Shown here in pieces: positions 17,156 to 60,913 of a stretch of 64,000 nucleotides of DNA (position 1 is its first letter; the number at the start of each line of letters is the position of its first letter). A program made the translations under genes and the position numbers. The notes under the pieces were generated by a model. The model saw nothing but the letters and a program-made list of their open reading frames with translations, did not search any database and was not told where the DNA came from. The DNA is from a virus. Its lineage: Duplodnaviria; Heunggongvirae; Uroviricota; Caudoviricetes. The stretch is taken from the IMG/VR virus record IMGVR_UViG_3300023184_000047, positions 34,057 through 98,056 of that record; one strand, 5' to 3'.

Positions 17156-17170
17156 AAATAATTGATAAAA

Positions 17171-17196
17171 GGCTTGCTTCGGCAAGCTTTTTTTCG
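17171..17196 (+). terminator. rho-independent terminator
   Basis: ggcttgc-TTCG-gcaagc hairpin plus T7, immediately followed by a class-A motif at 17193. Confidence 0.7.
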
Positions 17197-17227
17197 TATA
17201 TTTAAGTATTATTAAAAACAAAAAGTT

Positions 17228-25779: not shown

Positions 25780-25805
25780 AGCTTGCTTCGGTGAGCTTTT
25801 TTTCG
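25780..25805 (+). terminator. rho-independent terminator
   Basis: agcttgc-TTCG-gtgagct hairpin plus T8, directly followed by a class-A motif at 25802. Confidence 0.55.
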
Positions 25806-25836
25806 TATATTTAAGTATAAATCAAAAATAAAAGTT

Positions 25837-27284: not shown

Positions 27285-27311
27285 CATCGTAATTTTATAG
27301 CATAATTTAAA
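27285..27311 (+). promoter_or_regulatory. class-B conserved promoter-like motif TCGTAATTTTATAGCATAATTTAAAA
   Basis: ggattcttccaTCGTAATTTTATAGCATAATTTAAAA is nearly identical over about 36 nt to 35741..35778. Related copies at 5431, 29105, 37030, 37631, 38055, 38973, 39281, 39654, 40579 and 40891. Confidence 0.45.
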
Positions 27312-28395: not shown

Positions 28396-28465
28396 AGCCA
28401 ATTGGTGTACTGGCGTACGCACCCGATCGTAAGGGCAAGGGTTGGTTCGATTCCAACATTGGCTT
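28396..28465 (+). tRNA. orphan tRNA-like gene with irregular anticodon arm
   Basis: Acceptor agccaat/attggct perfect. D-stem gtgt/acgc. T-arm gttgg-TTCGATT-ccaac perfect. Anticodon region ccc-gatcgtaa-ggg gives a 3-bp stem with an 8-nt loop; identity unclear (CGT or TCG). Confidence 0.4.
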
Positions 28466-28484
28466 CAAATAAAAACAATAAGTT

Positions 28485-34883: not shown

Positions 34884-35121
34884 AATATAAATAAAGCATA
34901 CCATACACAACACCAATACAAACATACGTATATATGAGAAAGTTATATTACAAACTAGTTCAATTCATAGGTTATACAATTGAAATTATTGATACCATAG
35001 ATTCTACAACGTGGGAGACTACTAAACGGACTCACATTGTGGTATACAAGTATTATGGTAGGTTTAAACACGATAATAGTGTTAAAATGAGAATGATTTG
35101 GAAATATAAAATAAGATAGAT

Positions 35122-35499
35122 ATGAAAATAGCAGTAATAGCACATGATGGTAAGAAAGCAGATATGGTAGCTTTCATAATGAAAAGACTAGATTTCTTTA
35201 GTAGGGTAGAAATAATTGCTACAGGTACTACAGGAAAACATATTGAACATGCCGGACTAAAAGTACAATGCTTAAAGTCAGGACCATTAGGAGGTGATGC
35301 ACAAATTGCCTCTATGATAGCAGATGGAGAGGTTAATGGTGTTATATTCTTCATTGACCCTTTAGATGTTCTACCACACCAAGTAGATGTAAATATGTTA
35401 CTTAGAATTTGTAATGTATATAACACTCCATTAGCAACCAATTACAAGACAGCAATATATGTCATAAATGGATTAGAAACTAAATTGAATAAAAAATGA
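35122..35499 (+). CDS. mgsA: methylglyoxal synthase-like protein
   Basis: AVIAHDGKK...ATGTTGKHI...SGPLGGDAQIASMI...VIFFIDPLDVLPHQVDV...NTPLATN aligns block-for-block with E. coli MgsA (ALVAHD.K, ATGTTG, SGPMGGDQQ, FFWDPL..PHDPDV, NIPVATN). Length 125 aa. Confidence 0.75.
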   Translation: MKIAVIAHDGKKADMVAFIMKRLDFFSRVEIIATGTTGKHIEHAGLKVQCLKSGPLGGDAQIASMIADGEVNGVIFFIDPLDVLPHQVDVNMLLRICNVYNTPLATNYKTAIYVINGLETKLNKK

Positions 35500-35729
35500 C
35501 AGTAGCACAATTAATAGAAGCTCTAAGTAAGATAGAAGACCAAGAGGCATGGGTAATGGTAAAAGGGTATGAAGGAGGATATGATGATGTAATGACTATA
35601 AATCCAACACCTATAGAGATAGCCTTAGATGTAAATAAAGAATGGTACTTTGGTAACCATGAAAGAGCAGAAATGTTGATATATGACGACAGGAAAGACT
35701 ATCAAATAGTAAAAGCAATTATACTTTAG
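35496..35729 (+). CDS. hypothetical protein
   Basis: ORF. Confidence 0.35.
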   Translation: MTVAQLIEALSKIEDQEAWVMVKGYEGGYDDVMTINPTPIEIALDVNKEWYFGNHERAEMLIYDDRKDYQIVKAIIL

Positions 35730-35749
35730 GTTGGTTTATAGGATTATCA

Positions 35750-35778
35750 TTCGTAATTTTATAGCATAATTTAAAAAA
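35750..35778 (+). promoter_or_regulatory. class-B promoter-like motif
   Basis: ggattatcatTCGTAATTTTATAGCATAATTTAAAAaataaaaaGTTATG. Confidence 0.45.
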
Positions 35779-35787
35779 TAAAAAGTT

Positions 35788-36015
35788 ATGTCAGATGTAA
35801 TCAAAATTAATAAATGTTATGAGGTAGTTGATAACTGGGGAAATACAGAACAGTACAAAGATGCTAAGTTATATAAGTTACTAATTACTCCGGAAGATTG
35901 GTCAGATGACCAAACATTCATCTCAGACGAAGGAAGTTATGATATTGATGATTTAATAGGTAAAAAAGTTCAAGTAGGTACTTTTATTTTTACAGTTCAA
36001 GAAGAAAATAATTAA
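35788..36015 (+). CDS. hypothetical protein
   Basis: ORF. Confidence 0.4.
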   Translation: MSDVIKINKCYEVVDNWGNTEQYKDAKLYKLLITPEDWSDDQTFISDEGSYDIDDLIGKKVQVGTFIFTVQEENN

Positions 36016-36051
36016 TAAAAATTTTGAACAATTCAATAAATAAAACAAGAA

Positions 36052-36294
36052 ATGAATACTCAGACAAATAAACGGGCGATAGAAACAATAGGGTATAAGG
36101 GTAAGACATATGAAATAGATGTTCCGATGAGAGACCTATGTGAAGCACCACACCAAGACAATAAATGGCAACGTGAGCAAATAGAATTCGCTATACAACA
36201 ACAGGACTGGAATACGGTGAATAATAGAATAATAAACGGATTGAGGTTTATGTGGATGTGGGAGTTAGATGAGAATGGGAATAGAATAGAATAG
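36052..36294 (+). CDS. hypothetical protein
   Basis: ORF. Confidence 0.4.
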   Translation: MNTQTNKRAIETIGYKGKTYEIDVPMRDLCEAPHQDNKWQREQIEFAIQQQDWNTVNNRIINGLRFMWMWELDENGNRIE

Positions 36295-37080
36295 GGTTTT
36301 TTTGTAAGCAACCAACATTATTAAATGTTTTTTTGTTTAACGCATTGTTTTTTTTTGTTGCACAACACCATGTATAATTGGAGTTCATTGAAATTATCGC
36401 GTATTTTTGCGCAATAAACGCGGTTTTTTTTGTTGCTCAAGCAAAGTAGTAACGGTTGTAGAACAAGACGCAAGTATATTAAACGGTATGTGTAGTATTG
36501 TTTTTTTTGTAGCAAATACGCTATAGTATGTGACATGATGTGAGGTAATGGGTATTGTCGTTTGTTGTGTAGGGGAAAAGATCCGCCCCGCCCCGTCCCG
36601 TCTCCTTGAAAACCTAAACGTATATACAACAAAACATAACGTTACGATAGAGCTTCTCGATGGTTGGTATGCGTTTTTGTTATGATTTGACTCCTTTCAC
36701 CCGCGGAAGTCTTGTTTTTGTTGCGTTTCGATAGAGCTTCTCGATGGTTATTGATTTTTTCGATAGAGAAATTTGGTTACTGCAACTTTTTTTTGTACAT
36801 TATAAAAACTTAAAAAATATTTTATGCCTATTATCGTACTGTTTCCCGTTTATGGATTGCTTTTTGGAATACATTATGTCTCACCCGACATAGATGAAAA
36901 TTTTGATGTTGACGACGACGTCCATATGCTTCAAGTCGCACTGGGGTTTTTTGGTTTATCCATTATGTGGTAATTGTTTTTTTTGTTCATAACTTTTTTT
37001 GTTAAAAATTTGGTTACGTTATTTTTGTGTCGTAATTTTATAGCAGAGTTAAAAAATAATTAATTAACATTAAATTTAAA
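36295..37080. promoter_or_regulatory. about 0.8-kb repeat-rich non-coding region (candidate replication origin or regulatory hub)
   Basis: At least 12 copies of G/C-TTTTTTT(T)GT-NNC. Direct repeats of TTCGATAGAGCTTCTCGATGGTT at 36636 and 36727, with a partial third at 36758. GC box CCGCCCCGCCCCGTCCCGTCTCC at about 36583. Only a 49-aa ORF (36824..36973). Ends with a class-B motif. Confidence 0.4.
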
Positions 37081-37084
37081 GGTT

Positions 37085-37408
37085 ATGACACGTAATGAAA
37101 TCATTGCACAAGTAAAAGAAATGGGTATTAAAACAGAACGCCCAGCACATCAAATGAAAACAGAGGCGCTACAAGCACTCTTAACCCCACAAACAGAGGT
37201 TTCTAAAGCCCGTGGACGAAAAATTAATTTGGGTAGTGCCCGTCAAGCTAGATTAGCTGCTCAAGCAGCTCGTGCTCTAGAAGGACCGATTAAGAAAGGT
37301 CGTCGTCCAAATGTTACAAGCGCTCGTCAACAAAGACTAGCTGCTATTGAAGCACGTAAAGCGAATGGTGAAATCATTAAACGAGGAAGACCAGCTCTAG
37401 CAATCTAG
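37085..37408 (+). CDS. small basic DNA-binding protein with AT-hook-like GRP motifs
   Basis: KARGRKINLGSARQARLAA...KKGRRPNVTSARQQRLAA...KRGRPA has repeated RGR and GRP cores in a duplicated about 30-aa unit. Ends with TAG. Confidence 0.4.
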   Translation: MTRNEIIAQVKEMGIKTERPAHQMKTEALQALLTPQTEVSKARGRKINLGSARQARLAAQAARALEGPIKKGRRPNVTSARQQRLAAIEARKANGEIIKRGRPALAI

Positions 37409-37433
37409 GCCCCATGAGCCCCAGAAAGAAATT

Positions 37434-37463
37434 GACCCGACAGAAATGTCGGGTCTTTTTTTT
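37434..37463 (+). terminator. rho-independent terminator
   Basis: gacccgaca-gaaa-tgtcgggtc (9 bp) plus T9. Confidence 0.75.
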
Positions 37464-37689
37464 GTCGTACATAATATTTTTGTTCACAAATATTCATAAG
37501 TAATTTCTGTCTTACTAGGATACATCAGATATTTTTCGTACCTTTACCCCAATTTTAAGATTGAAAAAAAAACACATACCAAAACAAGACGAAAATGAAT
37601 TAAAAAAGACTTGGTTGATAGGAATAAGGGTCGTAATTTTATGCCTGAGTTAAAAACAACAATTAACAATTAAATTTTAAATTAAGGTT

Positions 37690-38007
37690 ATGAAAAAACA
37701 AGACGTATTAAACCGTGTATTGAATTCTGAGAGTTCTATTTTTAGCAAAGACGACGTTGTTCGTTTGATTGAGTCTCTGGACGAGACAAAAAACATTACC
37801 GTAACAGATATTGGAGCGGCTCTAGATGCTGCGATGGATGTTCTTACCCGCATGGGAGATGATTTGCTAGATGTTAGCACGGCTGAGTTTGATTTGAATG
37901 GAAATGAAATTCAATTAGTAGCTGTAGACGTAGATTTGGATTGCATTAGAGAACAAATGGAAGATAAATTGATGCCGTTAGGCGAAGCCGATCCAAATAT
38001 TAATTAA
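37690..38007 (+). CDS. small acidic protein
   Basis: 105 aa, Asp and Glu rich. Class-B motif upstream at 37631. Confidence 0.4.
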   Translation: MKKQDVLNRVLNSESSIFSKDDVVRLIESLDETKNITVTDIGAALDAAMDVLTRMGDDLLDVSTAEFDLNGNEIQLVAVDVDLDCIREQMEDKLMPLGEADPNIN

Positions 38008-38011
38008 AATT

Positions 38012-38034
38012 AAAGCGCTTTGGCGCTTTTTTTG
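38012..38034 (+). terminator. rho-independent terminator (conserved AAAGCGCTTyGGCGCTTTTTTTG)
   Basis: agcgc-tttg-gcgct plus T7. Same sequence recurs at 38292 and 39228. Confidence 0.7.
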
Positions 38035-38097
38035 TTTGGGCGAGATATGTTTTGTATCTTTATAGCAGATTTTAAAACAACAATTAAAAATTAAATT

Positions 38098-38289
38098 ATG
38101 GAAACAATTAATGAAATTAGAAGTTATTTTTCTACCAATTATGGTTATGTAGATCTGGACCAGTTACCAGATAGTTTTATTCTAGAGTTTATGTCTAGAG
38201 ATTATTTAGGGAGGTTATCATTTGAGGTAAAAATGGATTGCCTTTATGATTATATTTTGTCACAAGATTTATGTGACGTAGAAGAATAA
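38098..38289 (+). CDS. hypothetical small protein
   Basis: ORF bracketed by a class-B motif and the terminator. Confidence 0.4.
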   Translation: METINEIRSYFSTNYGYVDLDQLPDSFILEFMSRDYLGRLSFEVKMDCLYDYILSQDLCDVEE

Positions 38290-38291
38290 AT

Positions 38292-38340
38292 AAAGCGCTT
38301 CGGCGCTTTTTTTGTCCCAACGTGGTTGGGACTTTTTTTT
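38292..38340 (+). terminator. tandem terminators
   Basis: agcgc-ttcg-gcgct plus T7, then cccaac-gtgg-ttggg plus T9. Confidence 0.7.
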
Positions 38341-38376
38341 GTCGTACATTTATGCCCTAATTTTAAATTAAATAAA

Positions 38377-38937
38377 ATGAAAACATTAGTTATACACCCT
38401 CAAGACAGATCAACTGACTTCCTCCGCCCGATCTATGCCGACCTAGACGACGTTACTCTAGTGACTGAAGGTTGGTCCCAGAACCAGATCCGGGAGGCTA
38501 TCCAGACCCACGATCAGGTGATGATGATGGGCCACGGGAGCCCAAGCGGATTATTTGCCGTGGGGCAGTTCCCTACTAATAACCCTTACTCCAGTCATGT
38601 AATTGGAGCTAGCATGGTGTGGGAGTTGAGCCAGAAGGACAATAATATTTTTATCTGGTGTAATGCCGACCAGTTTGTTAACAGACATGGGCTCAAGGGT
38701 TTCTACAGCGGGATGTTTGTCTCGGAGGTGGGTGAGGCTTTTTATTGCGGTGTCAAGACATTTGATCAAGCCTCAGTAGACGAATCGAACGACACTTTTG
38801 CCCGTCAGTTAGGGGAGTGCCTTGGGGCCACGCGCGCGCCAGAGGAGATATTTGACCATATAAGAGGTCAGTATGGCCTACTAGCCGAAACAAACGCGAT
38901 TGTAGAATATAATCATCAACGTCTTTATTTAAAATAA
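38377..38937 (+). CDS. hypothetical protein with atypically GC-rich coding sequence
   Basis: Start set at MKTLVIHPQDRS. Codons are visibly GC-richer (for example ccgggaggctatccagacccacgatcaggtg) than the rest of the window. Confidence 0.45.
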   Translation: MKTLVIHPQDRSTDFLRPIYADLDDVTLVTEGWSQNQIREAIQTHDQVMMMGHGSPSGLFAVGQFPTNNPYSSHVIGASMVWELSQKDNNIFIWCNADQFVNRHGLKGFYSGMFVSEVGEAFYCGVKTFDQASVDESNDTFARQLGECLGATRAPEEIFDHIRGQYGLLAETNAIVEYNHQRLYLK

Positions 38938-39011
38938 TTGTAATTTTATTTTGTTACGTTATAATTTGTTATTATCTTTATATCAAAGTTAAACATTTAA
39001 AAATTAAAGTT

Positions 39012-39224
39012 ATGGTAAAAATCGAAAATTTTATTAACGAAAACTTAAACGAGTTTAATCAGTTAGAAAACAGCGAAGTTAAAGAGTACAACACAAACGA
39101 AATCGATAAAGATATTGTCGACTATTTAAAAGATAGTTTTAGACAAAGATACGATTATAAAGATATTTGTGTTTATTACGTAGAAGATTATAGTCAAGTG
39201 TGGGTCGAAAATATGGCTTCATAA
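39012..39224 (+). CDS. hypothetical small protein
   Basis: ORF with a class-B motif at 38973 and a terminator at 39228. Confidence 0.4.
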   Translation: MVKIENFINENLNEFNQLENSEVKEYNTNEIDKDIVDYLKDSFRQRYDYKDICVYYVEDYSQVWVENMAS

Positions 39225-39227
39225 ATT

Positions 39228-39249
39228 AAAGCGCTTCGGCGCTTTTTTT
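39228..39249 (+). terminator. rho-independent terminator (third copy of the conserved sequence)
   Basis: aaagcgcttcggcgctttttttg. Confidence 0.7.
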
Positions 39250-39317
39250 GTCTTTATTTGGTTACCCGAATTTTTATTCATACATTTATATCAAAGTTAA
39301 ACATTTAAAATTAAATC

Positions 39318-39620
39318 ATGAGTGAAAATCAAACCCCAGACAGAGACGAAAATGTATTAGAAGATTGTTTGTTTCAATTAACAGTAAAAGATGGTGTAAC
39401 GGCCCTTAAAGTAGAAGGTACATTAGGAAGTGTCTCAGAAGCGCTAGCCAATGCTGCCGTACAAAGTCCTCAACTGGAGGAGGTACTTAAAATGGTTACT
39501 TACATGTTGTTCCAACACCATATGTCCCAACAAGAAGACCCATTATCAGATGAAGATGAAGTGTCAGTTGAGGCTAGTGAGGTATTAAAAGATTTATTTG
39601 GTAAAATGGGTCAAGCTTAA
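39318..39620 (+). CDS. small acidic protein
   Basis: 100 aa, Glu and Asp rich. Class-B motif at 39281. Confidence 0.4.
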   Translation: MSENQTPDRDENVLEDCLFQLTVKDGVTALKVEGTLGSVSEALANAAVQSPQLEEVLKMVTYMLFQHHMSQQEDPLSDEDEVSVEASEVLKDLFGKMGQA

Positions 39621-39692
39621 TTAAATAGATTTGGTGGAGCGAAAGTTCCACCGTATCTTTATCTTAAAGTTCAACAGTTAATAAATTAAATT

Positions 39693-40085
39693 ATGTCAAC
39701 AAGATCACATATTGGAATACTTAAGGAAGATAAAACGGTTTTTTTTGTGTACTGTCATTTTGATGGTTACCCTACAGGCGTAGGTAGAATATTAAGAGAA
39801 TACTATGATAGACCTGAGCGTGTAATTAAATTACTTTCTTTGGGTAACATAAGTTCATTATCTAAAACAATTGAATCTACATTTTTTTATGGACGCGATG
39901 GTGGAGAGCCAAACCAAGAACAAATACAGGAGACCTACGATGAGTTCCTCCCAAGCGTTGGTTTTGAGGACTCAGGAATAGACTACAAATACTTATTTGA
40001 TGAATACACTGAAGAGTGGTCTTGTTACAACAGACAAGGCGACCTAGTTGAAATACCTACTGATGATCTAGACATAATCAGGTAG
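39693..40085 (+). CDS. hypothetical protein
   Basis: ORF. Confidence 0.4.
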   Translation: MSTRSHIGILKEDKTVFFVYCHFDGYPTGVGRILREYYDRPERVIKLLSLGNISSLSKTIESTFFYGRDGGEPNQEQIQETYDEFLPSVGFEDSGIDYKYLFDEYTEEWSCYNRQGDLVEIPTDDLDIIR

Positions 40086-40788: not shown

Positions 40789-41102
40789 TTTTATTTTATT
40801 TTAACACCCTTGAGCCTCATTTTCAATTATGGATTTGAGGCTCATTTATATAAAAACATTTTATATTTGATTTGGTTTATAGATTTATTATTCGTAATTT
40901 TATATCAAAGTTAAATAACAAACCCAATTAAACCAAATATAAAAAATGAATACAATAATACAAATAATAGAGCAAGATGGTTTCTACTGGTTCGAATATA
41001 ATACCAGAACAATAACCCTAATCAGTTTCTCATTGAGCGACTTAATAAAACGTATAGTACAATTAAACCCAACGTTAAACTAACACACGTACGTTAAATA
41101 CT

Positions 41103-41400
41103 AAACAAACAACAACAACTAACATGAGGCGGCCAAAAGGTCGCCTTCATTAATTTAAACACATGTATGCGCGCGTGCGACAAAAAGAATAGCGGGAACG
41201 GGCCTGCGACAAAAACTCTGGTCGGAGTCCCGGGTCTGGAAAAAAAAGAAGGGGGGTCGATCCGCTAGCGCGGCGCGCGCGGGGCGACGGCGAAATGGCC
41301 CCACGGTAATTGCGGTCCATCGACGGCGCGCGGTTGGTGCGCCCGAAGGCCCCGTATCTACAGATAAACGACAAAACCCCGGCCCCGCGCCTCATATATA
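41103..41400. other. about 300-bp GC-rich island (roughly 65% GC) flanked by an 8-bp inverted repeat
   Basis: Intergenic. Starts cATGAGGCGgcc and ends ggccccgCGCCTCATat. Inside are GC blocks separated by A-runs (tgcgacaaaaa twice, ggaaaaaaaag). Abrupt composition switch relative to flanks. Confidence 0.5.
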
Positions 41401-41596
41401 CAAATATACCGCAAAATTATGTTTAATTTTGACTCCCACAAAATCATTATAGCCCATTTCACCACAAAATCCGAGGGAGTAAACTCCTTCTTTTTACAAA
41501 TTTCTTTTCAAAACCAAAACGTATATACGAGAACGTGGATTATAAAAAGATTATTCGTATATTCAATACGTTATTATCGTATTAAAGTATTTAAAG

Positions 41597-42079
41597 ATGA
41601 TGAAAGACAAATTTAAACGTATATCAATAGAGGAGGCTCAAGAGCACTATTATCTAAAACCAGAAGGAATATCTTGTACTATCGCTAATGCATACACGTT
41701 AATGCCTGTTGAGGAACAAGATGGTTGGGAGGAAGTTCACTATTGGATTAAGAAAATATCGTTTAATGCTAAATTAGCTATTGATGAAGGGTATATCTAT
41801 ATTTTAGAGAATAAGAATCAACCGGGTATTTGTAAAATTGGATATACGGATCGTACGCCTCAAGAGCGAGTTAGGGAAATAAATGGTGCTACAGGTGTAA
41901 TTGTTCCGTGGTATATATCGAATGCTTTTCCGTGTAAATCACCTTTAGCTATAGAGCGTTTAGTTCATAGCGCTTTAAGTGATTATTGGGTGAATAAAGA
42001 AGGGTTCGCCGTTACTTTACCTCTCGCCGAACGTACTGTACTTAGTATTATTGTTGAAAATAGCGCAGGTATAGCGTAA
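41597..42079 (+). CDS. T5orf172 / GIY-YIG-like domain protein
   Basis: YIYILENKNQPGICKIGYTDRTPQERVREINGATGV matches the T5orf172-type GIY-YIG core (vYil.n....KIGiT....Rl.eln). Confidence 0.5.
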   Translation: MMKDKFKRISIEEAQEHYYLKPEGISCTIANAYTLMPVEEQDGWEEVHYWIKKISFNAKLAIDEGYIYILENKNQPGICKIGYTDRTPQERVREINGATGVIVPWYISNAFPCKSPLAIERLVHSALSDYWVNKEGFAVTLPLAERTVLSIIVENSAGIA

Positions 42080-44301: not shown

Positions 44302-44338
44302 AGTTTTATAACTTTTATATTTATAACCAAAAATAATT

Positions 44339-49817: not shown

Positions 49818-49850
49818 TAACTCTATATTTATAGTAAATAAATAATATAA

Positions 49851-55978: not shown

Positions 55979-56024
55979 AAAACATAAAATACAAATATTT
56001 ATAAACAAAATAATTAATTAATAA

Positions 56025-58984: not shown

Positions 58985-60913
58985 ATGAACGCTAAATTAA
59001 CAAGTATTTCAAGTAGCTTTCCATATAGTGGAAGTTTAATACATATAGTAAATCCTAATAACACCGCACAAGATCCGTCAGGTTCATCTTTTAAAACATC
59101 TTTATTGTTAGTAGAAAATTCTTTTCTAACAGCAAGTAGTAATACTGAGGTTATTTTTAATAGTGGTAGTAGATTTAAAAGTACAGGATCATTTACTTTT
59201 AATTATCAAAATCAAAGTTTACTGCAAGGACTTGCAGTTACAGCAAGCGGATTATATTCACACGCTCAAGGATTTAATACAATAGCATCAGGAAACTATT
59301 CACATACTGAAGGATGGCTAACAACAGCATCAGGTTCTTATTCACATGCTGAAGGACGCCAAACAGTAGCATCAGGATTTGCTTCACATGCTGAAGGATT
59401 AAGCACAATAGCATCAGGATCTTATTCACATGCAGAAGGATATAATACTTTAGCAAGAGGATCTTATTCACATGCTGAAGGTTCCGAAACTGTAGTAATT
59501 GGTACTTTTTCACATGCAGAAGGAAGTGGTTCAATATCATCAGGACTTGCTTCACATGCTGAAGGATTTGGAACAAATGCACTAGGAGCTTATTCACATG
59601 CTGAAGGGTCTAACACAATAGCATCAGGATCTTATTCCCATGCTGAAGGATACTTTGCAACAGCATCAGGATCATATTCACACGCAGAAGGATTATTCTC
59701 AACTGCATCAGGTGATTATTCACATGCAGAAGGAGCTAGTACACAAGCAATAGGAGTAGCTTCACATGCAGAAGGTGGAGCAACAGTAGCATCCGGAGAA
59801 GGATCACATGCAGAAGGAGATACTACAACAGCAACAGGAAACTACTCACATGCAGAAGGAATAACCACACTAGCATCAGGAGAATCTTCACATGCCGAAG
59901 GAGATACAGCAGTTGCATCAGGATACGGTTCACATGCTGAAGGAGTTAATACAACAGCAACAGGATATGCTTCACATGCAGAAGGATACTATACATTAGC
60001 ATCAGGATATGCTTCACATGCTGAAGGATCTGAAACTATAGCATCAGGAATATACTCACATGCAGAAGGATACGCCTTTCAAGGTAGTGAAACCGATCAA
60101 TTTACAAAGGCAACAGGATATGGAGCACATGCTGAAGGTCAAGGTACTTGGGCAAAAGGAGCTGGATCACACGCAGAGGGTACTTCTACAGATAATGGAA
60201 TAGATACAGACTATGTACTAATAGCATCAGGTTCTTATTCACATGCTGAAGGAGCAAGTACAATATCTGAAGGAATATTTTCACATGCTGAAGGATTCCT
60301 TACAAGAACAATAGGTATTGCTTCACATGCAGAAGGATACACTACTATAGCATCCGGAACTTATTCACATGCAGAAGGAGATGGAACTACAGCATCAGGA
60401 TATGCTTCACATGCTGAAGGAATACGAGTAAGAGCATTAGGATCAGGTTCACATGCTGAAGGATCTGGTGCAATAGCATCAGGAAACTTTTCACATGCTG
60501 AAGGTTCCGAAACTACAGCAATTGGTACTTATTCACATACTGAAGGATATGGTACATTAGCATCAGGACTTGCTTCACATGCTGAAGGATTTAATACAGT
60601 AGCATCCGGCTCATATCAACACGTACAAGGTCAATACAACATATCATCATCAGCACAATCTGCTTTTATAGTAGGTAACGGTACAGGAAATGGTAGTAGA
60701 TCAAATTTAATCTTTGCATCAGGTTCTCAAGTACAGATAACAGGTTCGTTAATGGTAAATGATATATTAACACTTACTCCAAGAACAACCACACCAGCAG
60801 GAGCAACAACCGGTAGTATAATAATGTCAGGAAGCTCAGGAGCAAATATAAACCTATATGTTTATACAGGAGCAGGAGCAGCTAATGGATGGGCAAAAAT
60901 AACAGCAGTATAA
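58985..60913 (+). CDS. fibre or adhesin-like protein with about 32 tandem 13-residue YSHAEG repeats
   Basis: Residues about 95-540 are 13-14-aa units of the form x-A-S-G-x-Y/A-S-H-A-E-G-x-x-T (39-nt DNA period). Resembles beta-helix or hep_Hag/YadA-head-like repeats. Confidence 0.5.
   Translation: MNAKLTSISSSFPYSGSLIHIVNPNNTAQDPSGSSFKTSLLLVENSFLTASSNTEVIFNSGSRFKSTGSFTFNYQNQSLLQGLAVTASGLYSHAQGFNTIASGNYSHTEGWLTTASGSYSHAEGRQTVASGFASHAEGLSTIASGSYSHAEGYNTLARGSYSHAEGSETVVIGTFSHAEGSGSISSGLASHAEGFGTNALGAYSHAEGSNTIASGSYSHAEGYFATASGSYSHAEGLFSTASGDYSHAEGASTQAIGVASHAEGGATVASGEGSHAEGDTTTATGNYSHAEGITTLASGESSHAEGDTAVASGYGSHAEGVNTTATGYASHAEGYYTLASGYASHAEGSETIASGIYSHAEGYAFQGSETDQFTKATGYGAHAEGQGTWAKGAGSHAEGTSTDNGIDTDYVLIASGSYSHAEGASTISEGIFSHAEGFLTRTIGIASHAEGYTTIASGTYSHAEGDGTTASGYASHAEGIRVRALGSGSHAEGSGAIASGNFSHAEGSETTAIGTYSHTEGYGTLASGLASHAEGFNTVASGSYQHVQGQYNISSSAQSAFIVGNGTGNGSRSNLIFASGSQVQITGSLMVNDILTLTPRTTTPAGATTGSIIMSGSSGANINLYVYTGAGAANGWAKITAV

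Follow-up and report, generated by a model that had tools for sequence, protein, structure and literature searches.

A conserved T-run box array in the early small-gene module of an uncultured freshwater myovirus, a candidate transcription control region

T4-type phages contain, in their hyperplastic regions, composite terminator/promoter cassettes called PeSLs (promoter-early stem-loops) (Arbiol et al. 2010 PMC2839356; Comeau et al. 2014 PMC4122927). The promoter consensus of the Bacteroidota is TTTG / TAnnTTTG (PMC10309648), and the early terminators of ASFV are poly-T signals that function independently of a hairpin (PMC10965686). The transcription signals of Bacteroidota phages are almost uncharted, and a search of the literature on Flavobacterium phage promoters and terminators found nothing specific. 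In phage T4, Rho-dependent terminators are located between the immediate-early and delayed-early genes, and in plasmid and lambda-type origins, repeats are combined with a GC box.

Here, we compare with these systems positions 36295-37080 (the field) of a 64,000-nucleotide stretch of phage DNA (the window) and the corresponding regions of related metagenomic lineages (L numbers). With moderate confidence, we interpret the field as a conserved transcription insulation and control region. It is part of a hyper-variable early module of small genes in an uncultured freshwater myovirus that probably infects a member of the Bacteroidota.

The T-run box, composite junctions and promoters

The T-run box has the form (G/C)T7-9GT. 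It was found that all 14 plus-strand runs of seven or more T in 36297-39748 have this form, compared with 0 of the 14 other plus-strand runs and 1 of 33 minus-strand runs (Fisher test, ~2.5e-8). Similarly, TTTTTTTGT is present in 15 copies in the window, versus 5.05 expected, and 14 of the 15 are on the plus strand in 36297-39748; the motif is restricted to one strand of one 3.5-kb module. The first-pass annotation had counted at least 12 boxes in the field. Such boxes do exist, well beyond chance expectation, but the count is 11, consisting of eight strict T7-9GT boxes (36297, 36328, 36348, 36424, 36501, 36787, 36977 and 36994) and three T5GT boxes (36674, 36715 and 37022), with six more strict boxes beyond the field, the last at 39748. 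In the terminators of the left-hand block the T-runs are followed by CG or AA, not GT.

A survey of the window and seven relatives yielded 82 distinct boxes, of which 59 are no more than 60 nt past a stop codon, 33 are next to a hairpin, and 38 are followed by a promoter with a high score. The -7 elements stand at discrete offsets from the boxes, in classes of 1, 4-5, 21, 31-34 and 48 nt.

Beyond the field, the box forms the T-tract of predicted terminator hairpins that are joined to promoters of the Bacteroidota type (TTTG-N20-TAnnTTTA). Five terminators combine a hairpin with a box, the first of which is a canonical intrinsic terminator on the plus strand at 37434-37465, with a 9-bp stem and ending in C-T8-GT. 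This terminator and those at 38012, 38292, 38314 and 39228 each consist of a strong, G+C-rich hairpin directly followed by a U-tract, with dG values of -15.9, -5.7, -5.7, -11.0 and -6.4 kcal/mol, respectively, and are located 17-47 nt downstream of stop codons. Such composite junctions part the genes across ~36.3-39.3 kb, and the promoter class runs on to 40.9 kb. With respect to the promoter that follows, the T-tract has three fixed placements: it is the -33 TTTG itself, it is ~10 nt upstream of a TTTGG -33 element, or it is in the spacer, abutting the -7 element. The second of these is the position of an UP element. The unit AAAGCGCTT[C/T]GGCGC-T7GT is present in three copies in the window and in four to eight copies per relative, and the ORFs around the junctions had no Pfam match and matched only PHROG families of unknown function.

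These junctions resemble the PeSLs of T4-type phages in that a stem-loop terminator, an A/T-rich tract and a host-type early promoter are combined in one short unit, here at 38012-38062, 38292-38353 and 39228-39288 and at most boxes of the relatives; in that many near-identical copies lie between small ORFs; and in that indels between close relatives are bounded by the repeated units. They differ in the promoter, which here has a -33 TTTG and a -7 TAnnTTTA element separated by 20 nt in place of the T4-type TTGACA-N17-TATAAT, and in the strict (G/C)T7-9GT tract, which is reused as a -33 element or spacer. The first five boxes in the field (36297-36510) are not PeSLs because stem-loop and promoter are both missing.

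In L001, which is 97% identical to the window, an extra 292-nt cassette is located between two terminator copies, and, conversely, a cassette at 39026-39242, between two promoter/leader copies, is extra in the window; the breakpoints of these indels lie in repeated terminator or promoter units. One cassette is found at another place in L007, where it is 88% identical in a genome that is otherwise 70-75% identical. The alignments thus indicate that recombination between repeated junctions adds and removes cassettes among relatives. The PeSL idea, that repeated regulatory junctions drive cassette shuffling, is thereby extended beyond T4-type coliphages to a different promoter grammar, and the locus is a clean, conserved example of a terminator, a -33 element and a spacer packed into one T-tract.

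The predicted phage promoters, including two in the field, match the Bacteroidota sigma-A type (-33 TTTG / -7 TAnnTTTG), and in the training promoters with an identifiable -33 TTG, the spacer is 20 nt in 18 of 19 and 19 nt in the other. The motif ATTTGGTTAC, previously noticed twice, has three copies (36771, 37008 and 39256) and is the -33 element of the host-type promoters of this phage. An E. coli-type sigma-70 scan was uninformative with respect to the host because sites were rarer than in shuffled sequences.

The first promoter predicted in the field (36772-36803, plus strand), for the gene ORF49, has TTTGGTTAC at -33, a spacer that includes C-T8-GT (36787-36796), and TACATTAT at -7. It ranks 31st in the window with a matrix score of 10.6, every lineage retains it, and its geometry, with the box against the -7 element, recurs at 38333 and in relatives. 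The second (37009-37084, plus strand), predicted to be a strong promoter with a leader for the gene of an AT-hook protein, consists of TTTGGTTAC at -33, a 20-nt spacer, TAATTTTA at -7 (37033-37040) and a TAGCAGAGTTAAA leader, with a matrix score of 29.9 (rank 9) and an identity of 0.90-0.96 among relatives. Between the two, plus-strand boxes G-T8-GT and C-T7-GT (36977-37002) are located 3 and 20 nt past the stop codon of ORF49, and the next -33 element follows 9-25 nt downstream of them; the T-run behind this stop codon is kept in all lineages, without any hairpin. It had been suggested that the field divides two promoter classes. Two classes do exist, sharing -33 TTTG / -7 TAnnTTTA and the fixed 20-nt spacer and differing downstream of the -7 box, but members of the right-hand class already lie left of the field, at 27290 and 35754.

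Gene content, orphan boxes and conservation of the field

The field had been described as ~0.8 kb of non-coding DNA and the longest ORF-poor stretch of the window. Positions 36295-36823 are non-coding, but 36824-36973 (plus strand) is coding, and a second gap, at 41084-41596, is about equally long. The coding part, ORF49, encodes a small hydrophobic membrane protein of 49 aa (MPIIVLFPVYGLLFGIHYV...ALGFFGLSIMW). Its identity by codon position is highest at the second and lowest at the third position, and distant relatives have an in-frame 6-nt indel; therefore, it is a real coding gene. ORF49 is already annotated as a gene in public contigs, and no Pfam or PHROG family was found for it. The gene that follows (37085-37408, plus strand) encodes a basic protein of 107 aa with RGRP-type AT-hook motifs (ARGRK, KKGRRP and KRGRPA), for which there was no Pfam or PHROG family and no match in a search of GenBank phage proteins. 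Relatives were found by using the AT-hook gene as an anchor; a nucleotide search of GenBank phages with 35000-39000 gave no match.

The boxes hold their positions in about 13 related lineages, at -742, -666, -590, -306 and -108 relative to the AT-hook gene in at least 10 of them and down to 58% identity, although the spacing (20-77 nt) is irregular and varies by lineage. The distant relative L008 has an AT-hook-type gene and lacks the box array.

Boxes 1-5, all on the plus strand, are orphans with respect to promoters. Box 1 (G-T7-GT, 36297-36305) begins 2 nt past the stop codon of ORF 36052-36294, has neither a hairpin (dG 0.0) nor a promoter, and in all relatives, a T-run directly follows this stop codon, the flanks being unconserved. 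Boxes 2 (G-T7-GT, 36328-36336, kept as T7-8GT(T)TAACGCATTG in the window group) and 3 (G-T9-GTTGCACAA, 36348-36358, the box at -742) also have neither hairpin nor promoter, and the same is true of box 5 (G-T8-GTAGCAAAT, 36501-36510; -2.2 kcal/mol). Boxes 1-3 and 5 are hairpin-less in every lineage. Box 4 (G-T8-GTTGCTCAA) is preceded by a weak, terminator-like hairpin, TTGCG-CAATAAA-CGCGG, the whole spanning 36407-36433; the hairpin is kept in 13 of 13 lineages, where the changes in it are one-sided and leave the pairing intact, L021 has a stronger version of it (GCGC-TAAAGT-GCGC), and T7GTTGCT is invariant in all 13 sequences. The distance from box 3 to box 4 is 76 nt and that from box 4 to box 5 is 77 nt, the latter falling to 68 nt in the L006 group. 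The orphan boxes have a common conserved extension, GT[T/A]GC[A/T]NAA.

As a test for intrinsic terminators, the 32 nt upstream of each field box were folded, and the minimum free energies of 0 to -3.1 kcal/mol were within the background (mean -2.3). The exception was the box at 36424, with -7.3 kcal/mol from a non-adjacent hairpin or, alternatively, a five-pair adjacent hairpin with two G-U pairs. A pattern scan of 36295-36770 returned a single canonical match to the host promoter consensus, the candidate TTG-N21-TATTTTTG at 36378-36409 (plus strand). This block is the best-conserved 30 nt of the field (identity 0.94); as a promoter it is weak, with a score below 6 in the phage-trained matrix and a spacer of 21 instead of 20 nt, the -33 element is mutated in L017 and L019, and the L006 group has lost the TA of its -7 box. 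The spacing of TGAAAAC...CGTATA is far too short for an ECF-sigma promoter.

The GC box that the first-pass annotation had pointed out is CCGCCCCGCCCCGTCCCGTCTCC at 36583-36605; this C-rich, G-poor sequence follows a GGGG-loop-CCCC mini-hairpin (together 36572-36605, plus strand) and is kept in 12 of 13 lineages, L021 having an equally G-poor, CA-rich tract instead. Adjacent to it on the plus strand is a 22-nt motif, TTGAAAACCTAAACGTATATAC, with the palindrome GTATATAC (36606-36627), of which a second copy is located at 41507-41528, ~4.9 kb downstream and past the last gene of the small-gene module (local alignment score 34, versus 20.0 +/- 2.4 in shuffles). The sequence AAACGTATATAC is present in exactly two copies in the window and is invariant among relatives. 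The 10-nt flank upstream of the motif differs across lineages, and within any one lineage the two sites agree in it. When 185,579 bacterial genomes were scanned for the 19-nt core, seven scattered matches resulted, a number that by a rough estimate does not exceed chance, and they gave no hint of the host. A resemblance of GTTGCTTAA to a T4 MotA box was rejected, its spacing to any -10/-7 element being unfit. Long-range complementarity between 36549-36563 and 41368-41382 scored in the shuffle range and did not covary in L002.

Pairwise identity over 36325-36640 is 0.86-0.88. In the flanking genes, it is 0.80 for four-fold sites, 0.75 for all third positions and 0.89 for the first two codon positions, and the comparison indicates that the segment is under purifying selection. 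The comparison with related phages that had been proposed as a check thus revealed a functional, repeat-bearing region tied to transcription signals, with T-run boxes, a GC box and a TTTGGTTAC element that the relatives retain.

Such conservation, together with a minus-strand open frame of 103 aa (36321-36632) and several short plus-strand ORFs, could mean that the field encodes a small protein on either strand or a non-coding RNA (an sRNA, a long leader or an antisense RNA). We regard this as highly improbable. The minus-strand frame in use switches between the window and the 97%-identical L001, and the minus strand is open in all three frames because the plus strand is rich in G+T; conservation in the field has three-base periodicity in no frame, and the plus-strand ORF 36548-36685 and the inter-box units have no codon periodicity of conservation. 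Rfam at gathering thresholds detected only tRNAs, none of them in the field, and Rfam 15 at a permissive threshold (E<=5) found nothing in the field other than one noise match (CrcZ, E = 2.8); a permissive search of a GC-rich patch near 41.2 kb found nothing. The consensus fold has only -6.65 kcal/mol over 455 columns, with the few two-sided pair changes situated in an essentially unstable fold, and the single-sequence fold z-scores are +1.34 for the plus strand (if anything, less structured than shuffles) and -0.36 for the minus strand. Neither ARAGORN nor Rfam found degenerate tRNAs in the 76-nt units, and no tandem repeats of the type III antitoxin RNA kind were found in the field.

The repeat segment and DNA-level readings

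A 23-nt repeat at 36636 and 36727, about 90 nt apart and with a partial third copy, had led to the suggestion of an iteron-type replication origin. The repeat exists, but it is CGTT[A/T]CGATAGAGCTTCTCGATGGTT, a 26-nt sequence at 36640-36665 and 36724-36749 with a distance of 84 nt, and the partial copy is present as TTTCGATAGAG at 36758-36768; T5GT boxes at 36674 and 36715 complete this plus-strand segment (36640-36768). The segment is the least conserved of the field (pairwise identity 0.68, versus 0.80 at four-fold sites), the repeats are absent from L003, and in L006, L007, L027 and L030 an ORF for a two-helix membrane protein of 64 aa takes the place of the segment; therefore, the iteron reading fails. 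The lack of conservation among relatives is the finding that the first-pass annotation had itself named as refuting, and other hallmarks of an origin are missing. Lambda ori and plasmid oriV likewise have direct repeats, T-rich tracts and a GC-rich box in one non-coding stretch, in contrast to which the field has 2.4 repeat copies that are 84 nt apart and unconserved, where iterons are at least three regular, conserved repeats of ~17-22 bp, and the field has no DnaA boxes and no nearby initiator gene. A false origin call is thus removed.

In the window, the repeat segment contains a remnant ORF of 21-24 aa (..TPFTRGSLVFVAFR) that resembles the 64-aa protein and is frameshifted in L017 and L019. 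This remnant of a gene intact in another lineage, flanked by direct repeats, the gene-less orphan promoter at 37505-37546, and the demonstrable plasticity of the module are what would be expected if the field were debris of cassette shuffling, with the orphan boxes and the 26-nt repeats being functionless scars of deleted early-gene cassettes. As an account of the whole field, this is decidedly improbable: 36325-36640 is conserved above synonymous sites, and its boxes keep their places in lineages that are as little as 58% identical. The debris interpretation fits 36640-36770 only, and for that segment, it is the one that we prefer.

A DNA-level role (a protein-binding array, an origin, a packaging site or a repeat boundary) would yield conservation equal to that observed, and the field could be a replication or genome-end element, such as an origin, a terminal-repeat boundary or a packaging site. 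The field is conserved, non-coding and devoid of structured RNA, its repeats and GC box are reminiscent of plasmid and lambda-type origins, and, in addition to the 22-nt motif with its co-varying flanks, the arrangement of a C-rich box plus TATATAC recurs ~4.9 kb downstream. In some phages, terminal repeats carry host-takeover genes, and in the genome-end version, the motif copies at 36606 and 41507 would mark both ends of a ~5-kb early module. We see only a small probability for such an element, given that the long direct repeats are unconserved, that the A+T content (67%, versus 68% in the window) provides no extra AT-rich unwinding element, and that no match to the DnaA box TTATCCACA with up to one mismatch was found in 36000-37200. 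No replication or terminase genes were found within ~10 kb of the field, the neighbors of which are a thymidylate synthase gene and small ORFs without assigned function, and the ends of 24 related contigs do not pile up there. Cumulative GC skew, which had been proposed as a check, rises smoothly and monotonically through 36 kb without inflection, although the test is weak because every gene is on one strand. Furthermore, the orientation of the boxes strictly follows that of transcription, and they reappear where genes end. The second motif site, at 41507, adjoins an even more conserved GC-rich patch, and this patch, at 41.2 kb, is a better place in the window to look for a DNA-level element.

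Possible control of early transcription

The interpretation of the field as a region of transcription control is consistent with the presence of five stacked boxes, one with a weak hairpin, behind the last stop codon of the upstream operon. The stacked T-tracts and the C-rich tract would stop or attenuate read-through from this operon, by inefficient intrinsic and/or Rho-type termination, and the downstream genes would thereby rely on their own promoters. The two predicted promoters would then restart transcription, for the 49-aa membrane protein and the AT-hook protein, and the palindromic motif may be an operator for some regulator. Efficient termination by bacterial RNA polymerase at a bare U-tract is not known, and since boxes 1-3 and 5 have no hairpin, a termination role for the orphan boxes is suggested by their position and not by their anatomy.

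The unstructured RNA, in combination with the composition of 36576-36640 (C 35%, G 11%), fits a Rho-loading tract. As at the C-rich, G-poor rut sites of Rho-dependent terminators, the RNA is unstructured and the 65-nt tract is located between the end of an operon and the next promoters; unlike rut sites, which are usually poorly conserved, the tract here is short and well conserved. Three observations are at odds with transcription control of this kind: the inter-box sequence is also conserved, which a simple stack of terminators does not need; the GT behind the T-run fits the rules of neither terminators nor promoters; and the sole canonical promoter-like site in the orphan array scores poorly in the phage-trained matrix.

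Neither the GT nor the G/C before the T-run varies across the three promoter geometries or on six unrelated hairpins, and for this reason the box seems to be a signal in itself. The orphan boxes could accordingly be a protein-binding array, in line with the loading region for a phage transcription factor that the first-pass annotation had offered as its alternative to an origin, with (G/C)T7-9GT read by a DNA- or RNA-binding factor of the host or of the phage (for example, the AT-hook protein). The five boxes would be a high-affinity loading site, and the copies at every early junction would put the whole early module under control of the factor, to be shut off, activated or terminated, in the manner of poxvirus T5NT early termination or of a spreading repressor. 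In agreement with this, the orphan boxes and their common extension are conserved in the absence of hairpin and promoter, the motif is limited to one strand of one module, and the conserved AT-hook gene is the first strongly promoted gene downstream of them. We nevertheless consider a binding array unlikely, in that the box carries little information beyond the T-run, the array is absent from L008 in spite of its AT-hook-type gene, and the spacing is irregular and lineage-variable. Whether they serve transcription control or a bound protein, the five conserved boxes, which obey the rules of neither terminators nor promoters, are a precise target in the search for a new termination mode or a new early-gene regulator.

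A bolder version, which we think quite unlikely, is that (G/C)T7-9GT is a hairpin-independent, strand-specific signal at which a phage factor, possibly the AT-hook protein, terminates or silences early transcription, with the orphan boxes as a loading or terminator array and the pair of 22-nt motifs delimiting the regulated unit. If this were true, the signal would be a counterpart in a bacterial virus of the poly-T early termination of poxviruses and ASFV. The early terminators of those viruses (T5NT or poly-T) are similarly strand-specific T-runs with a fixed next nucleotide at the ends of early genes; they are read by viral RNA polymerases and termination factors, whereas the promoters of this phage are of the host type. 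The resemblance is in strand and position: in addition to the 59 surveyed boxes that closely follow a stop codon, several boxes here are hairpin-less, including those behind the stop codons of ORF 36052-36294 and ORF49 in all lineages.

The T-run box and its genomic setting

The phage sequence in the window is AT-rich (about 31% G+C), and the + strand carries all of its credible genes. An array of 22-23 tRNAs is present at 6.2-10.2 kb, the auxiliary genes are T4-like (RNA ligase, endonuclease VII, phosphoesterases, and thymidylate synthase), and a tail/baseplate block begins beyond 41.6 kb. A nucleotide search with 35000-39000 found no match among GenBank phages, and the closest cultured relative, Flavobacterium phage vB_FspM_immuto, is distant (42% amino-acid identity in one baseplate protein); exact protein look-ups matched the window's genes to a metagenomic contig, with all of those looked up annotated as 'hypothetical'. 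Relatives were gathered by using as an anchor the 107-aa AT-hook gene (37085..37408, + strand) just downstream of the ORF-poor repeat field at 36295-37080. Most of the contigs found in this way (8 viral and 17 metagenome) come from freshwater lakes, and the field is covered by about 13 distinct lineages (L numbers below denote such contigs or lineages).

The sequence TTTTTTTGT was observed in 15 copies compared to 5 expected, 14 of the 15 being on the + strand within 36297-39748. In a census of every run of at least seven T residues in the window, on both strands, the + strand runs within 36297-39748 had G or C before them and GT after them in 14 of 14 cases, a form found in 0 of the 14 remaining + strand runs and 1 of 33 minus-strand runs. 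The box, (G/C)T7-9GT, is thus real and more sharply defined than in the first-pass annotation, although we counted 8 strict copies and three T5GT variants in the field rather than at least 12. The box at 39739, which lies within a gene and encodes Val-Phe-Phe-Val, is probably incidental. The motif ATTTGGTTAC, reported earlier at 36771 and 37008, is present at both sites and also at 39256.

Terminators fused to promoters

Canonical intrinsic terminators, located 17-47 nt past stop codons, use the box as their T-tract in the 37.4-39.3 kb interval, with hairpins of -5.7 to -15.9 kcal/mol, and across relatives T7-8GT closes all of six unrelated hairpins. The phage promoters belong to the Bacteroidota type (TTTG-N20-TAnnTTTA; Bacteroidota consensus TAnnTTTG, PMC10309648). 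A matrix trained on 20 of the phage's own promoters placed a promoter 25-45 nt ahead of almost all gene starts from 5 to 41 kb, and the spacer was 20 nt in 18 of the 19 promoters with an identifiable -33 element and 19 nt in the other.

We evaluated 82 distinct boxes, drawn from the window and seven relatives, for the distance between the box G and the TA of the -7 element that comes next, and this distance fell into discrete classes of 21, 31-34, 1 or 4-5, and 48 nt. A box in the 21-nt class supplies the -33 element with its own TTTG; one in the 31-34-nt class precedes a TTTGG -33 element by about 10 nt, in the position of an UP element; and one at 1 or 4-5 nt serves as the spacer, with G-TACATT.. 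or GTCG-TACATTTA following. Therefore, a terminator and the next promoter are fused around a single T-tract. As read from sequence, the box is shown to be both the terminator T-tract and a promoter part of an early cassette module. The left block of the genome has the same fusion with another junction, hairpin-T6-7-CG-TATATTTAAGTATA. At 6022-31016, 11 copies of hairpin terminators fused to T6-9 and then CG-TATATTTAAGTATA were observed, and the 5′ arm of the terminator hairpin often contains the -33 TTG (e.g., 17170-17210 and 25780-25820).

The cassettes are plastic. L001 (97% identical) has a 292-nt cassette between two copies of AAAGCGCTT[C/A]GGCGC-T7-8GT that is missing from the window, and the window has a cassette missing from L001 (38977-39320, comprising ORF 39012-39224 and its terminator) between 30-nt direct repeats of promoter/leader sequence. 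The latter is found elsewhere in L007 (10533-10850) at 88% identity, in a relative otherwise 70-75% identical, which is evidence for cassette exchange. Cassette gain and loss between repeated units is a property of promoter-early stem-loops (PeSLs), the composite terminator/promoter cassettes of T4-type phages (PMC2839356, PMC4122927). The module junctions have the sequence-level features of PeSLs and a matching plasticity, but they use the Bacteroidota promoter grammar and a strict, multi-purpose T7-9GT tract; by these features, they are a PeSL variant.

Past the AT-hook gene's terminator, a conserved non-coding stretch (37465-37610) contains a promoter without a gene behind it, TAGGATAC-N15-TCGTACCTTTA, with the -7 element at 37539. 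In L006 and L007, this promoter would drive the homologue of gene 38377-38937.

Composition and constraint of the field

The earlier description of the field as non-coding held for most of its length, with codon periodicity in no frame on either strand, but not for ORF49 (36824-36973), which encodes 49 aa with two hydrophobic segments and has a coding signature: conservation decreases from second to first to third codon positions, and distant relatives have an in-frame 6-nt indel. Its promoter (36772-36803) has a box as spacer, two boxes without a hairpin are immediately past its stop codon, and the strong AT-hook gene promoter (37009-37040, matrix rank 9 in the window) follows. The segment at 36640-36770 has the lowest conservation in the field (identity 0.68). 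The repeat unit described there as 23 nt long exists, with a partial third copy of 11 nt at 36758, but its true size is 26 nt (36640 and 36724, 84 nt spacing). This segment is missing from L003, and in L006, L007, L027, and L030 its place is taken by a gene for a 64-aa two-helix membrane protein, of which the window has a 24-aa remnant (..TPFTRGSLVFVAFR) that is frameshifted in L017 and L019. In our reading, a cassette probably decayed or was replaced here, and the direct repeats would be the scar left by recombination.

Constraint was evaluated as mean pairwise identity among five lineages of the window group, with three flanking genes as reference. In these genes, four-fold degenerate sites had an identity of 0.80, third positions as a whole 0.75, and first and second positions 0.89; the field gave 0.88 (36325-36520) and 0.85 (36521-36640), or 0.86 without T-runs. 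Therefore, the non-coding part left of 36640 is constrained, near the level of amino-acid-changing positions. The field is neither a known RNA family nor a structured RNA: it had no Rfam match, its consensus fold was only -6.65 kcal/mol over 455 columns, and the + strand fold was worse than 184 of 200 shuffles. The G+T-rich composition of the + strand accounts for a 103-aa minus-strand frame, for which the reading frame differs among near-identical relatives, and no tandem array was found in the field.

An iteron-type replication origin, as proposed earlier, was not borne out: the long repeats are unconserved among relatives, the A+T content of the field equals the genome average, and there are no DnaA boxes in the field and no replication genes nearby. 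GC skew has no inflection at the field, which is a weak test in a genome transcribed one way. A DNA-level role of the field, for instance as an origin or as the boundary of a terminal repeat, is improbable, and a GC-rich patch at 41150-41400 is a better candidate for a DNA-level element or a new RNA.

Orphan boxes and the role of the field

Five + strand boxes (36297, 36328, 36348, 36424, and 36501), the first of which is 2 nt past the stop codon of ORF 36052-36294, are orphans, with no promoter at the canonical offsets in any lineage. Four have no hairpin (0 to -2.2 kcal/mol compared to a background mean of -2.3), and the fourth box has a weak upstream hairpin, TTGCG-CAATAAA-CGCGG, conserved in 13 of 13 lineages. 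Orphan boxes hold positions -742, -666, and -590 relative to the AT-hook gene and have conserved extensions (GTTGCACAA, GTTGCT[C/T]AA, and GTAGCAAAT). A single candidate promoter-like site of host consensus, TTG-N21-TATTTTTG, lies in the best-conserved block (36378-36409); its score with the phage matrix is low, and some lineages have it in degraded form. By the tests applied, this array is not a PeSL, an intrinsic terminator, or an iteron set. To its right are a G-rich tract, a GGGG-loop-CCCC mini-hairpin, and a C-rich box, in that order, and the GC box described earlier was confirmed at 36583-36605. The mini-hairpin/C-rich box tract plus the next 35 nt is 35% C and 11% G; in L021, a CA-rich tract that is G-poor to the same degree stands in place of the C-rich box.

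A 22-nt motif, TTGAAAACCTAAACGTATATAC, with the palindrome GTATATAC, is located at 36606-36627, and a second copy is about 4.9 kb downstream (41507-41528), beside the GC-rich patch, which lies past all genes of the small-gene module. The two sites align with a score of 34 compared to 20.0 ± 2.4 for shuffles. In the L006 lineage, both sites have an upstream flank (CCACTT[T]C..) that differs from that of the window yet is alike between them, which suggests that either gene conversion occurred or the sites co-evolved with a single binding factor. Relatives have a third CGTATATAC site after a CA-rich tract (L003 2889, L006 3013, and L017 2684), 5-8 nt before the start codon of a small gene and about 1.6-2.5 kb upstream of the field, so the motif is also found in a leader-like position; the window counterpart at 34924-34936 is CGTATATAT, overlapping the ATG.

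The field is a real, conserved, and mostly ordinary regulatory region with one component unexplained. It is flanked by an operon end and two promoters, and it is constrained, unstructured, and C-rich/G-poor at its end. We give about an even chance that its role within the early cassette module is to insulate and restart transcription. The C-rich tract and the stacked T-tracts, of which one has a hairpin, would then reduce read-through, with termination being inefficient and of the intrinsic and/or Rho type, and the palindromic motif may be an operator common to the field and the site 4.9 kb downstream. This reading does not account for the GT being invariant in every box geometry or for the conserved sequence between orphan boxes, and it gives no way for hairpin-less boxes to act on a bacterial polymerase. 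Therefore, an alternative stays live, though we consider it unlikely, in which the box is a factor-binding site, possibly of the neighboring AT-hook protein; this is near the earlier suggestion of an enhancer-like region. A form of this alternative, in which the box would signal early termination without a hairpin, by analogy with poxviruses and ASFV, is less probable still.

The 41150-41400 patch is conserved, non-coding, and 59% G+C in a 31% G+C genome, with neither an Rfam match nor a credible ORF. Its core of about 73 nt (41259-41331), GATCCGCTAGCGC...CCCACGGTAATTGCGGTCCATCGACGG, is near-invariant, and whole-patch identity to the window is 74-91% in the same lineages. Minus-strand T5GTCGCA boxes are present in the patch at 41180-41215, and in its area a C-rich box is followed by CATATATAC (41393), with the second motif copy at 41507-41528. 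The first gene past the patch (41597-42079) matches PHROG families of unknown function and, more weakly, homing-endonuclease and endonuclease families; L006 has two additional genes here, separating this gene from the patch.

ARAGORN found a tRNA-like gene at 28396-28466, far from the main array, with an undetermined two-base anticodon; it was not reported at the Rfam gathering threshold. Short gaps before structural genes (44302-44338, 49818-49850, and 55979-56024) have in common a TATATTTATA-type motif, which precedes the ATG by about 20-25 nt, has no -33 element, and is probably the late promoter class. Within ORF 58985-60913 (642 aa), TTATTCACA is repeated every ~126 nt at 59338-60537, a periodicity that indicates predicted tandem domain repeats of about 42 aa each in a structural protein.
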